64,000 bases of DNA from an uncultured Clostridia bacterium (GTDB lineage: Bacteria > Bacillota > DTU025 > MWDF01), in the NCBI GenBank assembly GCA_964577435.1, contig CAZNZD010000001.1:7247-71246 (forward strand), written 5' to 3'. The notes beneath the pieces are model-generated. The model did not search any database. It was not told the DNA's origin and saw only the letters and a list, made by a program, of their open reading frames with translations. Positions 40,771-45,000 of this stretch are shown here, one piece after another. Position numbers and translations under genes: made by a program. Each line of letters starts with the position of its first letter. Position 1 is the stretch's first letter.

Positions 40771-41678
40771 GGATCATCTCGAATCCTATCATGCTGAAAG
40801 AGCGCACAAGCATGCTTTGGCTTCAGTATGGAAACATCGATGTGGTAGACGGAGCTTTGGTTTTGATTGATAAGGAAGGTATAAGGACCCATATTCCTAT
40901 AGGCGGAATTGCATGCCTATTCTTGGAACCCGGAACAAGGATCTCTCATGCTGCAGTTGCAATTGCAGCTGAGGTCGGTTGTCTTCTTCTCTGGGTAGGC
41001 GAAGGCGGAGTAAGGCTATACTCCGCCGGCCAACCTGGTGGTGCGAGGTCTACTCGCCTGCTATATCAGGCGCAGCTAGCACTAGACGAGAAGCTCCGAC
41101 TGAAGGTTATTAGGGCCATGTATAAGCATAGGTTTGGTGAAGAGATGCCACTTAAGCGCAGCCCCGATCAGCTCAAAGGAATTGAAGGCGCTCGAACGAA
41201 AGCTATGTACAAGTTGCTTGCCTCCCAGTATGGCGTTAAGTGGGAAGGCAGGTCATATGATCCGAAATCAATCGACTTGAGCGACACTCTGAATCTTTGC
41301 CTTAGTGTCGCAAACCATTGCTTATATGGCATCTGTGAAGCGGCGATCTTAGCAGCGGGATATGCTCCAGCGATTGGCTTCATTCATGCTGGTAAACCAC
41401 TGTCATTTGTCTACGACATTGCAGACCTGTTCAAATTTGAGACTTCCGTCCCAATAGCTTTCGCAACGAGTAAGCAAAAATGCGATGACTACATGAGACA
41501 GGTCAGGACAAATTGCCGTGATGGTTTCCGGAAGTTGAATCTGCTAGAGAAAATTATTCCTACAATAGATGAGATACTACGCTCTGGAGAAATCCCTATG
41601 CCGGAAATACATAAGGAAGCAATTGAGATTGCTATACCTAATGAGGAGCAAACTGGAGATGCTGGTCATCGTTCTTGA
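40767..41678 (+). CDS. cas1: Cas1 integrase (type I-E)
   Basis: 303 aa Cas1e in the expected position and with the expected length. Overlaps cas6e by ATGA. Confidence 0.9.
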
Positions 41679-41979
41679 AAATGCACCGCCTAGATTGCGA
41701 GGATACCTAACAAGATTGATGCTCGAAGTAAGGGCGGGTGTCTATATCGGTGACTATTCGAAAAGAGTACGGGAATCTCTTTGGGAAGCGGTCCAAGGTG
41801 GTATTGGAGAAGGAAATGCTGTTATTGCATGGTCTAAGTCTAACGACATTGGTTTTGACTTTGACACTTGTGGCAAGAATCGTAGAGTGCCTTGCGAACT
41901 CGGGGACATGAAATTATGCAGTTTCCTACCAGAGATTATGCCTTCGAGTTTGGTAGAGAAAACTGCTCAATCGAAATGA
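41659..41979 (+). CDS. cas2: Cas2 (type I-E) with short C-terminal extension
   Basis: Starts [31 protein letters not shown], typical of Cas2e. Overlaps the cas1 3' end. 106 aa versus ~94 aa typical. Confidence 0.85.
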
Positions 41980-42007
41980 GTTGTTATGCAGGCGATATTC
42001 TCTAAGA

Positions 42008-45000
42008 GCTTTCCCCGCAGGCGCGGGGATGAACCGCAATATGTGTAAAAACTGCAATTACGAAGTTAGCTTTCCCCGCAGGCGCGGGGATGAACCGGTC
42101 AGCGAAGAGCTCCTGGCTGATGCCAAGTAGCTTTCCCCGCAGGCGCGGGGATGAACCGTCTTTGGCGTACTGTTTGACTCCTGCGTAGTCGCTTTCCCCG
42201 CAGGCGCGGGGATGAACCGGCTAGGTCCGCATTAGCATGATCCAGCCCGCCGCTTTCCCCGCAGGCGCGGGGATGAACCGCATGAACTCCAGGTTCGAGC
42301 ACTTCGTTCAGAGCTTTCCCCGCAGGCGCGGGGATGAACCGTACACGGCCTCCCATCACGCTGGTGACAATCCGCTTTCCCCGCAGGCGCGGGGATGAAC
42401 CGTGATTTCGAGCGTCTCCCCGTCTGCTATCTCCGCTTTCCCCGCAGGCGCGGGGATGAACCGGCCGTGTCAGTCCTTCCAGGGATAGCTGAGGCGCTTT
42501 CCCCGCAGGCGCGGGGATGAACCGTCAACAACCCCAACGACGCAGGCGGGGAAACGGCTTTCCCCGCAGGCGCGGGGATGAACCGTACTCGCTTGCGGAA
42601 GCGTTAGGCATAGAGGAGCTTTCCCCGCAGGCGCGGGGATGAACCGCCTTACAACAAACTTTACGACTATATGTATAAGCTTTCCCCGCAGGCGCGGGGA
42701 TGAACCGGGGAATGAGATAGCTGCCGTCGCGGTCATGACGCTTTCCCCGCAGGCGCGGGGATGAACCGCAGTGTTGCTTGTTAGTAGAAAATGGGGAAAA
42801 GCTTTCCCCGCAGGCGCGGGGATGAACCGATCTCTCCAACCTTCTCTGCCATTCGGACCGCGCTTTCCCCGCAGGCGCGGGGATGAACCGGAAATTGACG
42901 CCTGCGCCACGGACCTGGCGGAGCTTTCCCCGCAGGCGCGGGGATGAACCGATTTCGAAACTCACGCCGTAGTAGTTGTAGAGGCTTTCCCCGCAGGCGC
43001 GGGGATGAACCGATTATCAACTTGTCCATACTCTGACCACCTCTGCTTTCCCCGCAGGCGCGGGGATGAACCGTCGCTTTACACCAGCAACGACGGCACT
43101 AACGAGCTTTCCCCGCAGGCGCGGGGATGAACCGTAGCGGTCTGCCGTTGGCTTGTCTATCTTCCAGCTTTCCCCGCAGGCGCGGGGATGAACCGACCGG
43201 CTTCAGGAACTCGGTAAGCCCGAGCCCGCTTTCCCCGCAGGCGCGGGGATGAACCGGGCAGGATGCCTGGATTGGTGGAGCTGTCAGGGCTTTCCCCGCA
43301 GGCGCGGGGATGAACCGCGGATAGTCGTATGGAGGGGGTATTCGGGCGCGCTTTCCCCGCAGGCGCGGGGATGAACCGGGTGGCGCAGGTATGCCTGAGG
43401 CCGTGGAACTGCTTTCCCCGCAGGCGCGGGGATGAACCGGCACGCTCAGCACAACATAGCAGGCAAGGCCAGCTTTCCCCGCAGGCGCGGGGATGAACCG
43501 TCCTTCTCCAACTCGGTCATCGTGTCGCCTCCGCTTTCCCCGCAGGCGCGGGGATGAACCGCGGACCGCCGGAAGCCTGTGCCTGTGGATTTCGCTTTCC
43601 CCGCAGGCGCGGGGATGAACCGGCCTTGACTATTTCGACCCTCGCCCCGGTCGTGCTTTCCCCGCAGGCGCGGGGATGAACCGCAATGAAGGAGGCGACG
43701 ACATGAACGGGCTCCGCTTTCCCCGCAGGCGCGGGGATGAACCGAACACAGGATAGACGGAGATCTGACGAAGGTGGCTTTCCCCGCAGGCGCGGGGATG
43801 AACCGTTCTTCAACGCCGTCTTCTGCGCCATCGCGTCGCTTTCCCCGCAGGCGCGGGGATGAACCGTTGGACTTTGCGATTGCGTTATACAGCCTGCCGC
43901 TTTCCCCGCAGGCGCGGGGATGAACCGTAAACGTAATCACCTGCAGGCACAGGGTCAGTGCTTTCCCCGCAGGCGCGGGGATGAACCGGTTCCTGCGCCG
44001 TCGCTCTTTATCAGCCCTGTGCTTTCCCCGCAGGCGCGGGGATGAACCGTATTGCCGCCACCTTGCACCCCTTCAGCGCATGCTTTCCCCGCAGGCGCGG
44101 GGATGAACCGAGGGGAGCGCCGATACCTTGATCTGACGCAGAGCTTTCCCCGCAGGCGCGGGGATGAACCGTCGTTGTTTTCCTCGAAAGCCTTCGCCCT
44201 GTTGCTTTCCCCGCAGGCGCGGGGATGAACCGCAAGCACTACTTCCGTAGCGATTACTGGGCTTGCTTTCCCCGCAGGCGCGGGGATGAACCGATCACGC
44301 TGAGCGGCTGAGTTCTTGCACCCTGGCTTTCCCCGCAGGCGCGGGGATGAACCGACGCTCATGGCCATACTGAAAATGAAGGCGAAGCTTTCCCCGCAGG
44401 CGCGGGGATGAACCGGTCAGTACGATGTTGACTGCCGTCGCCTGGTTGCTTTCCCCGCAGGCGCGGGGATGAACCGTACGCTGTCGGGGGAGTCGACCTC
44501 GCAGAAACGCTTTCCCCGCAGGCGCGGGGATGAACCGAGCAGATCATGAGGCGGCTGATAGAGGTTGAGGCTTTCCCCGCAGGCGCGGGGATGAACCGGC
44601 ACGAGTCGCAGAGCTGATGCTGGAACGATAGCTTTCCCCGCAGGCGCGGGGATGAACCGCTGGAATAATTCTTTATGCAACTCCTTCGCCAGCTTTCCCC
44701 GCAGGCGCGGGGATGAACCGTGTCGAAAGGCGCCCCTATTGGTACGTGGCGGGCTTTCCCCGCAGGCGCGGGGATGAACCTGAGGGGAGGTCGCCGCTGA
44801 TGGCTGATGAAAGAGCTTTCCCCGCAGGCGCGGGGATGAACCGATGAGAATGGCAAGCCCAACTACGTGACAGGCGCTTTCCCCGCAGGCGCGGGGATGA
44901 ACCGAAACTTGCCGACTTCTTCGCTGCCGCAGGGACGCTTTCCCCGCAGGCGCGGGGATGAACCGGGATTTCCGATGCCTTCTTGGACACGGCAGAAGCT

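Follow-up and report, generated by a model that had tools for sequence, protein, structure and literature searches.

Among the described type I-E CRISPR-Cas systems, that of Escherichia coli K-12, in which CRISPR-1 lies by cas2 and CRISPR-2 by queE/ygcF, provides the main reference for the locus described here. In E. coli, the Cas1-Cas2 binding site is at positions -1 to -4 upstream of repeat 1 (PMC10011333), an IHF site is located at -9 to -35, and a second conserved leader region extends from -44 to -59 and contains an integrase anchoring site at -50 to -53 that was mapped by mutagenesis (PMC5224486). Bending of the DNA by IHF brings the upstream elements at -50 to -55 to Cas1-Cas2 (PMC10011333). 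The E. coli leader is wholly non-coding, with the cas2 stop codon 105 nt from repeat 1 and the Cas2 protein ending one residue past SFLP (...SFLPV*). In the type II-A system of Streptococcus thermophilus, a very short leader-anchoring sequence adjacent to repeat 1 directs acquisition (PMC4330368); this system is of another subtype and integrase specificity, has no upstream motif or bend, and is not homologous to the present locus, for which it offers a functional analogy only. Full-text literature searches returned no relevant description of an overlap between a leader and cas2, which is no proof of such overlaps being undescribed.

The locus examined here is part of a stretch of 64,000 nucleotides from an uncultured Clostridia bacterium, the whole of which is referred to below as the window. 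Coordinates are those of the window, and negative positions are counted upstream from the first base of repeat 1.

The type I-E locus and its CRISPR array

Based upon Pfam matches of eight ORFs, the window contains a full I-E gene set, consisting of cas3, cse1 (cas8e), cse2 (cas11), cas7, cas5, cas6e, cas1, and cas2, which forms one operon on the + strand (33560-41979) with the same gene order as in E. coli K-12. The cas1 gene (40767..41678, + strand; PF01867) encodes a protein of 303 aa that aligns with E. coli K-12 Cas1 at 62% identity and retains the equivalents of the catalytic residues E141, H208, and D221; the Cas2 proteins of the two systems are 54% identical. The operon is followed by an array of 105 repeats and 104 spacers (42008..48381), found on the + strand only, with a period of 61, repeats of 29 nt and spacers of 32 nt, one spacer being 1 nt longer than all others. 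No repeat matches were observed in the shuffled window. Repeat 1 (GCTTTCCCCGCAGGCGCGGGGATGAACCG; 42008..42036, + strand), which is the expected site of integration, is identical to the array consensus, and 101 of the 105 repeats, including the first and the last, are perfect. In three repeats (44781, 46063, and 47100) the last base is T or A rather than G, which is consistent with this base being PAM-derived as in E. coli. The repeat matches the 29-nt E. coli I-E repeat (GAGTTCCCCGCGCCAGCGGGGATAAACCG) in register and orientation, and the palindromic pattern CCCCGC...GCGGGGAT[GA]AACCG is common to both. By gene set and repeat type, the system is of type I-E. The shared register also agrees with an earlier note on this DNA, which placed the leader end beside cas2 and took the array to be read on the + strand.

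The 3′ end of cas2 and the extent of the leader

The cas2 gene (41659..41979, + strand; PF09707) starts with an ATG at 41659, overlapping the cas1 stop codon (41676-41678), and codes for 106 aa followed by TGA (41977-41979). In an alignment of 23 homologues, the conserved core of Cas2 ends at P91 (41931), and codons 92-106 (41932..41976, + strand) form a variable C-terminal tail that is unalignable among the homologues except where the DNA motif described below falls. The window protein has 15 residues past SFLP for which E. coli Cas2 has no counterpart, and the C-terminal extension that was put at about 12 aa in the earlier note is thus real. The reported distance of 28 bp between the cas2 stop codon and repeat 1 is also exact (41979 to 42008), and the intervening sequence (GTTGTTATGCAGGCGATATTCTCTAAGA; 41980..42007, + strand) is the sole non-coding part of the leader. 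In the 62 related loci where an array directly follows cas2, this gap varies from 18 to 250 nt with a median of 77 and is 27 nt or less in six of them; the gap in the window is short, yet not unique. It had further been suggested that the last ~100 bp of cas2 are locally AT-rich. Their GC content is indeed low (0.44), but this is not confined to them, as the whole of cas2 (0.445) and the 3′ half of cas1 (0.45) have similar values. The gap has a still lower value (0.39), against 0.53 in the cas operon.

Based upon an anchored comparison with 57 other leaders, position weight matrix (PWM) ranks and the E. coli landmarks (PMC5224486; PMC10011333), the functional leader probably comprises positions -60 to -1 (41948..42007, + strand; GC 0.38). 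Thirty-two of these 60 nt are within cas2, consisting of its last 10 codons (97-106) minus one base together with the stop codon. Hence, the statement that a leader is essentially absent does not hold, and a leader of about 60 bp appears to be present in which 32 nt double as cas2 coding sequence and stop. Leaders that are not entirely non-coding are similarly found in 18 of the 58 related cases.

A GGTAG motif at a fixed distance from repeat 1

The leaders that were anchored on repeat 1 included 58 dereplicated sequences as well as both E. coli leaders. In 51 of the 58, a GGT[AG][GC] motif starts at -56 (4 leaders), -55 (16 leaders), or -54 (31 leaders), and elsewhere in the 160 nt upstream it was observed at most twice per position, save for a secondary peak of five at -25. 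The E. coli K-12 CRISPR-1 leader has GGTGG and the CRISPR-2 leader GGTAG, both at -54. In the window, GGTAG is present at -56 to -52 (41952..41956, + strand), where it falls within the cas2 codons L98-V99-E100 (ttG GTA Gag). It is 2 nt farther out than in E. coli, and in the window lineage generally it is 1-2 nt farther from the repeat than in the other groups. Judging from its sequence and position, this GGTAG is the counterpart of the E. coli -44 to -59 region with its integrase anchoring site. The suggestion in the earlier note that leader functions overlap the 3′ end of cas2 is thus supported by a motif whose distance from repeat 1 is as in the relatives and E. coli.

The placement of the motif relative to cas2 differs among the relatives. 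It is intergenic in 36 leaders, in 10 its TAG is the cas2 stop codon, so that Cas2 ends with W* or R*, and in eight it is inside cas2, where it is read as Val in the window and in L088, L094, and L004, and as Gly-Arg in L010, L014, L019, and L032. As the motif is read in all three frames, the constraint is on the DNA rather than on the protein. A repeat of the type GCTTTCCCC is common to three lineages (the window, L088, and L094), whose Cas2 proteins are 71-86% identical. Although their cas2 stops (at -28, -37, and -31), Cas2 tails, and intergenic sequences have diverged, all three have GGTAG at exactly -56.

With anchored PWMs, the upstream block of the window leader ranked 38 among 115,164 positions and the proximal block 23 among 115,128. 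An unanchored nhmmer leader profile (from 55 or 15 relatives, with the repeat excluded) missed the window leader, and its top matches were elsewhere with E > 2. Since a profile without anchoring fails, the evidence for the leader consists of a few short motifs at fixed positions.

The closest named relatives of the window Cas2 (65-76% identity) are from loci of a planctomycete/acidobacterial type (for example L001-L019; Thermoguttaceae, Holophagaceae). Like the window, these loci have short gaps between cas2 and the repeat (22-50 nt); they have GGTAG at -55 and the junction GAAG[AT]. Here the motif mostly either supplies the cas2 stop codon through its TAG (W*) or codes for Gly-Arg; in the window it codes for Leu-Val-Glu, and cas2 stops 20 nt past its end. 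Their repeats start with GTGTT or GAGTT, in contrast to GCTTT in the window.

The leader-repeat junction and the region between the motifs

At the junction with repeat 1, the window has AAGA at -4 to -1 (42004..42007, + strand), which corresponds to GAAG[AT] in the family consensus and to TAGA in E. coli. The two junctions, AAGA|G and TAGA|G, are similar, and the AAGA of the window is a candidate Cas1-Cas2 junction site. In both systems an AT-rich stretch is present between the junction and the upstream motif, and it is here that IHF binds in E. coli. Because cas2 in the window runs to -29, the upstream motif and half of the putative bend region are coding.

A search for the IHF consensus within 60 bp of repeat 1, which had been proposed as a check, revealed no perfect match to WATCAANNNNTTR; across the entire 64 kb window only two perfect matches were found, none of them near the array. 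The best candidate is a weak IHF-like site, AAATGAGTTGTTA, at -34 to -22 (41974..41986), which lies over the cas2 stop codon, matches YAANNNNTTGATW at 7 of 9 positions, and is on the - strand, reversed with respect to E. coli. A match of at least 7/9 has a chance of 0.0026-0.005 per position. The offset and orientation of this site are the same as in the planctomycete/acidobacterial-type relatives (group B), where a reverse IHF-like motif is present at -34 or -33 with AA at -33/-32 and TG.T at -26 to -23. No HU or IHF genes were detected by tblastn in the 64 kb window, which is a fraction of the genome and uninformative on the host in this regard. The host, whose LysA is 80% identical to that of a Bacillota MAG, probably belongs to the Bacillota, which are not known for canonical IHF, and a dependence on IHF is for this reason doubtful.

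Transcription and the far end of the array

A candidate internal promoter for the pre-crRNA, TTGACA-16-TAGAGT (10/12 match), is present inside cas2 at -147 to -120 (41861..41888, + strand), but the number of such sites is at chance level. It sits on the invariant FDT and RRV codons of cas2, it is roughly kept in L088 and L094 and absent from the GC-rich relatives (TTGACA in 4 of 41), and its signal cannot be separated from codon usage. Counts of promoter-consensus sites were generally at or below the shuffle expectation. No promoter-like site was found within -60 to -1 and no terminator between cas2 and the array, and the array must be transcribed either from a start within cas2 or by read-through from the cas operon.

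Beyond the array, a hairpin terminator with a 14-bp stem, a flanking A-run and a T-rich tail (48439..48473) is present 57 nt past the last repeat. It is followed on the - strand by genes for tRNA-Lys(CTT) (48488-48563) and tRNA-Met(CAT) (48640-48715), and the hairpin closes the transcripts that converge on it, one from the array and one from the tRNA genes. With the tRNA genes at 48488..48715, the distal end has no space for a leader.

Spacer turnover among related strains

Over 1877 nt covering cas6e-cas1-cas2-leader, the contigs L083 and L084 match the window at 99.25% identity, and none of their 25 leading spacers was found among the 104 of the window, the best match being 17/32. Similarly, the members of a sister lineage (L094, L099, and L100) have the same leader and compact layout and different first spacers in different samples. 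The comparison of first spacers that had been recommended thus reveals polymorphism among near-identical strains, and the array appears, from these sequences, to be still taking up spacers. The view that it is not acquisition-competent is unlikely, because near-identical strains differ in their leading spacers and Cas1 keeps its catalytic residues. This turnover could in principle also reflect replacement of arrays by recombination instead of acquisition. One junction-pattern scan of metagenomes yielded one extra strain of the P0004 lineage; the sole contig with the neighbouring aminotransferase ends at window position 48517, outside the array, and the sole contig with the exact Cas2 of the window ends in repeat 1. 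With the whole array as the blastn query, 50,697 phage records yielded nothing beyond a chance-level match of 27 nt, and no exact 27-mer of spacers 1 and 2 was matched in IMG/VR.

Proposed explanation and alternatives

We consider it likely that the array is served by an ordinary leader of the E. coli I-E type, about 60 bp long and packed against cas2, with a dispensable Cas2 tail being translated from leader DNA. The window leader is a compact variant of the already known I-E leader and reveals no new mechanism. Starting from the motifs, distances, conservation and strain-level spacer turnover observed here, Cas1-Cas2 would dock at the leader-repeat junction (AAGA|G, 42004-42008), the DNA from about -35 to -9 would be bent by an IHF/HU-type protein or intrinsically, and the bend would return the upstream GGTAG onto Cas1, a contact that would mark repeat 1 alone as the integration site. 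The contact of the motif with Cas1 and the need for a bend are proposed by analogy with E. coli biochemistry. The cas2 frame would simply run on to the first stop, which in the window lineage is at -31 to -29, so that GGTAG is read as Leu-Val-Glu. It is unlikely that the sequence has a dual use throughout a large I-E clade, as both docking motif and cas2 3′ end, with IHF-less hosts such as the Bacillota bending the DNA otherwise, through a different bending factor or intrinsic curvature. In such a case, the motif would set the Cas2 stop (TGG TAG) or be translated in either of the other frames, and ribosomes or RNA polymerase crossing the cas2 tail would occupy the docking site; if true, the expression of cas1-cas2 could be coupled to the accessibility of the integration site.

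An upstream contact would be superfluous if the 10-30 nt nearest the junction alone direct integration, as in type II-A, and GGTAG is a functionless inherited relic. The weakness of the IHF-like site (7/9) and the lack of a perfect one, the probable Bacillota host, the shift of the motif to -56 and the empty unanchored profile search are in accordance with this. However, an unselected relic within a fast-evolving tail is expected to decay, whereas GGTAG is at exactly -56 in three diverged lineages, and the E. coli enzyme with which Cas1 shares 62% identity does use the upstream motif, which makes this explanation unlikely. It is quite unlikely that the -56 to -44 block is mainly a promoter or start-site region for the pre-crRNA instead of an integrase docking site. 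Although in E. coli CRISPR-1 transcription is reported to start about 50 nt upstream of repeat 1, coinciding with the motif (PMC10011333), and many relatives have TTTGACA at -45 to -39 with [AT]ATCAA 17 nt on, the window lineage has neither TTGACA after GGTAG (GGTAGAGAAAAC) nor a well-spaced -10-like box, and mutagenesis in E. coli assigns -50 to -53 to Cas1-2 anchoring (PMC5224486); the two roles are not mutually exclusive.

The preferred explanation of a compact leader must also be weighed against two proposals that deny a working leader next to cas2. The array could be a fossil that lacks a proper leader, has lost acquisition, and is merely transcribed with the cas operon. The non-coding sequence of just 28 nt, the absence of a promoter or IHF site that can be assigned with confidence and the empty protospacer searches (phage records and IMG/VR) would fit such a state, but it is very improbable in view of the strains that at 99.25% nucleotide identity share none of 25 leading spacers, the similar behaviour of the sister lineage, the 104 spacers with 101 perfect repeats including the first and last, the intact Cas1 and Cas2, and the occurrence of the compact layout in 18 of 58 related leaders. 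A true leader at the far end (48382 onward) of an array that is read on the minus strand, which the earlier note had named as the opposing scenario, can be regarded as excluded for all practical purposes, and nothing was found in its favour. On the + strand the repeat points the same way as its E. coli counterpart, and in this orientation the variable, presumably PAM-derived base is at the repeat 3′ end. The terminator and the two tRNA genes are reached no more than about 110 nt past the last repeat. Of the 80 loci of the nearest Cas2 relatives, 62 have an array with the same motifs immediately after cas2; in the rest, which mostly end no more than ~170 nt past the cas2 stop codon, none was detected.

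Implications for leader recognition and Cas2 sequences

Tools for leader prediction and array orientation, as well as judgements on the "live" status of an array, often presuppose a leader of at least 100 bp that is non-coding and AT-rich. This assumption fails for about a third of the I-E clade as sampled here, and an anchored GGTAG at -54 to -56 together with a GAAG[AT] junction provides a better criterion. A motif embedded in coding sequence also constitutes a natural test of the need for upstream anchoring outside the enterobacteria and in hosts without canonical IHF. Lastly, the variable tails at the C terminus of Cas2e proteins, and the Trp that recurs as their last residue, are a by-product of the leader DNA and not protein features, which bears on the design of constructs and on the reading of Cas2 alignments.

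Organization of the cas operon and the CRISPR array

A complete type I-E operon was identified by Pfam on the + strand of the window, comprised of cas3 (33560-36268), cse1 (end at 37805), cse2 (37802-38284), cas7 (38265-39449), cas5 (end at 40131), cas6e (40141-40770), cas1 (40767-41678) and cas2 (41659-41979). The MLVIVLEN N-terminus read from the cas2 ATG at 41659 is common to all homologues in an alignment of 23 Cas2 sequences. The longest cse1 ORF (TTG at 36186) shares 83 nt with the end of cas3 (36186-36268) and is matched by Pfam only from residue 33 onward; the true start of cse1 is probably further downstream. 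The CRISPR array consists of 105 repeats (42008-48381, period 61, + strand only), of which the first, GCTTTCCCCGCAGGCGCGGGGATGAACCG, is co-linear with the E. coli repeat GAGTTCCCCGCGCCAGCGGGGATAAACCG, and this repeat was found nowhere else in the window. The cas2 stop codon (TGA, 41977-41979) is separated from repeat 1 by 28 nt, as an earlier note on this DNA had reported.

Of the 105 repeats, 101 are perfect, including the first and the last. In three others (44781, 46063 and 47100) the last base is T or A rather than G, one (47934) has a C to T change at position 9, and one spacer (44782-44814) is 1 nt longer than the others; none of these variants falls in the newest third of the array. As the last repeat base in E. 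coli derives from the PAM (PMC10011333), its variation here agrees with acquisition in the E. coli manner and in the + orientation. The GC content of spacers 1 (42037-42068) and 11 (42647-42678) is only 30%, where the 104 spacers average 56%, and these two may derive from another class of invader; spacer 1 yielded no protospacer.

Conserved motifs at fixed distances from repeat 1

When upstream sequences from related loci were aligned by anchoring on repeat 1 (negative positions are distances upstream of 42008), conserved blocks were observed within otherwise unalignable DNA. These consist of (T)(C/T)GGTAG(A/G) followed by a T-rich run at about -57 to -45, often TTTGACA at -45 to -39, GAAG[AT] at -5 to -1, and an IHF-like box between the upstream block and the junction. 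Dereplication left 58 leaders, with E. coli K-12 and two sister lineages among them. The start of GGT[AG][GC] falls at -54 in 31 leaders, at -55 in 16 and at -56 in 4; elsewhere within 160 nt it occurs at most twice per position, except for a secondary peak of 5 at -25. E. coli CRISPR-1 has GGTGG and CRISPR-2 has GGTAG at -54, and the CRISPR-2 leader of E. coli WB61 (L102, 191-203) carries, besides the one at -54, a second TTTGGTAGATTTT at about -163. The second conserved leader block of E. coli spans -44 to -59 and contains the integrase anchoring site at -50 to -53, and its IHF site lies at -9 to -35 (Yoganand et al., PMC5224486); a review places the Cas1-Cas2 site at -1 to -4 and, at -50 to -55, an upstream element that IHF bending brings in (PMC10011333). 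In E. coli, the region of the GGT[AG][GC] motif is this second conserved block.

In the window, GGTAG is present at 41952-41956 (-56 to -52) and AAGA at 42004-42007 (-4 to -1), both on the + strand, and AA at -33/-32 and TGTT at -26 to -23 agree with the logo of the planctomycete/acidobacterial-type relatives. At any one position of the window, GGTAG is expected by chance with a frequency of 0.0005 and AAG[AT]G with one of 0.002, and with anchored position-weight matrices built without the window lineage the upstream block ranked 38 of 115,164 and the proximal block 23 of 115,128. Because an unanchored profile search did not recover the window leader, the case rests on short motifs at predicted positions and not on overall similarity. 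With conserved motifs present at fixed distances from repeat 1, the claim of the earlier note that the leader is essentially absent is not supported. The window leader is of the E. coli type in every testable feature, apart from being partly coding and having a doubtful IHF site, and it appears to be a compact variant of this known I-E leader.

The IHF-like pattern differs among relatives: proteobacterial ones have WATCAANNNNTTR at exactly -21 (a match of at least 8/9 in 18), and in planctomycete/acidobacterial-type ones the pattern is found as its reverse complement, at -34 or -33. The IHF consensus that the note had proposed seeking upstream of repeat 1 gave no perfect site near the array in a scan of the window, the best match being 7/9, in reverse, at -34 (AAATGAGTTGTTA, 41974-41986), across the cas2 stop codon.

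Overlap of the leader with cas2

A search with Cas2 gave 3765 hits, and 80 loci, representing the nearest Cas2 relatives and not a random sample of I-E systems, were fetched from named genomes and MAGs. In 62 of these the array directly follows cas2 in the same orientation, with a gap between stop codon and repeat 1 of 18 to 250 nt (median 77; at most 27 nt in 6 and exactly 50 in 9); in E. coli K-12 this gap is 105 nt, in contrast to 28 in the window. Measured from the end of the conserved Cas2 core (SFLP motif), repeat 1 of the window lies 76 nt away, the shortest distance of the set (relatives 84 to 253 nt), and hence the window represents the extreme of a compactness common among these relatives.

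In the window, GGTAG is translated in the frame ttG GTA Gag, giving Leu98-Val99-Glu100 of Cas2, and the comparison thus supports the alternative of the earlier note that leader motifs are embedded in cas2. Among the 58 leaders the motif is intergenic in 36, lies inside cas2 in 8, and in 10 its TAG serves as the cas2 stop, with a gap of 48-50 nt and Cas2 ending W* or R*. Where it is inside cas2, it yields Val in the window and in L088, L094 and L004, but Gly-Arg in the related loci L010, L014, L019 and L032. As the distance to the repeat is kept while the motif is read in all three frames or is unread, the constraint on GGTAG acts on the DNA. The three closest lineages (the window and the sister lineages P0002/L088 and P0004/L094), all with the GCTTTCCCC repeat type, have GGTAG at exactly -56, although their cas2 stops lie at -28, -37 and -31, respectively, and their tails and gaps differ. 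Within P0002, the 37-nt gaps of L088 and L089 differ at three positions, one of them -1 (G/A), and their cas2 tails are identical.

Cas2 tails past SFLP differ in length and sequence among the 23 aligned homologues and E. coli Cas2 ends one residue past this motif; the best reading of the C-terminal extension is therefore that translation continues into leader DNA. In many planctomycete-type loci (L001, L002, L005, L009, L012 and L013), the last Cas2 residue is Trp, directly before a TAG stop (..DDW*, ..PPW*); as TGG TAG constitutes the leader motif, this recurrent Trp is set by leader DNA. No description of a leader/cas2 overlap was found in the searchable literature, whose coverage does not extend to the main leader-motif survey; the overlap is of modest interest as a compact form of a known leader type.

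Acquisition, orientation and transcription

The other alternative of the earlier note, that the array is not acquisition-competent, is unlikely. Contigs L083 and L084, from near-identical strains, have the same leader as the window and are 99.25% identical to it over 1877 nt (from cas6e to repeat 1), and none of their first 25 spacers matches the window's 104 (best match 17/32). These comparisons are of leader-proximal spacers; the trailer end of the array in other strains lies beyond all contigs. First spacers, whose polymorphism the note had proposed as a check, also differ among L094, L099 and L100 of P0004, which have the cas2 tail and leader in common, and in P0002, L088 and L093 share spacers 1-7 and differ in one internal spacer and one SNP. 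In Cas1, which has 62% identity to its E. coli counterpart, the catalytic Glu, His and Asp are kept; together with this spacer turnover and the near-perfect repeats, this argues against a loss of acquisition.

No terminator was found between cas2 and the array, and no promoter-like site in -60 to -1. One candidate promoter, TTGACA-16-TAGAGT (41861-41888), was found within the cas2 coding sequence, where it coincides with the invariant codons for FDT and RRV. The two sister lineages retain it approximately and GC-rich relatives do not, and similar sites occur in the operon at chance frequency. Array transcription by an internal promoter or by read-through from the cas operon is possible.

Origin of the locus and its distal end

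The host is apparently an uncultured Bacillota bacterium, with a housekeeping LysA (56099-57430) that is 80% identical to that of a Bacillota MAG and about 56% to those of Negativicutes and Clostridia. In contrast, the nearest named Cas2 relatives are from Planctomycetota (the nearest), Acidobacteriota and Proteobacteria (60-76% identity), and GC content drops from about 0.53 to 0.44 across the last 800 nt of the cas operon; based upon these observations, the cas/CRISPR locus was probably acquired by horizontal transfer.

A leader at the opposite end (48382) with minus-strand transcription, the arrangement that the note had set against its own reading, is rejected for want of space there, as the last repeat is followed after 57 nt by a 14-bp hairpin terminator (48439-48473) and then by tRNA-Lys and tRNA-Met genes, both on the minus strand. 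Three bases past the last repeat, a 27-nt stretch (48384-48410) is an 85% inverted copy of the tRNA-Lys(CTT) anticodon arm (48516-48542); its inverted orientation is unlike a normal att duplication, and it may be the remnant of a rearrangement or of an island insertion at the tRNA gene.
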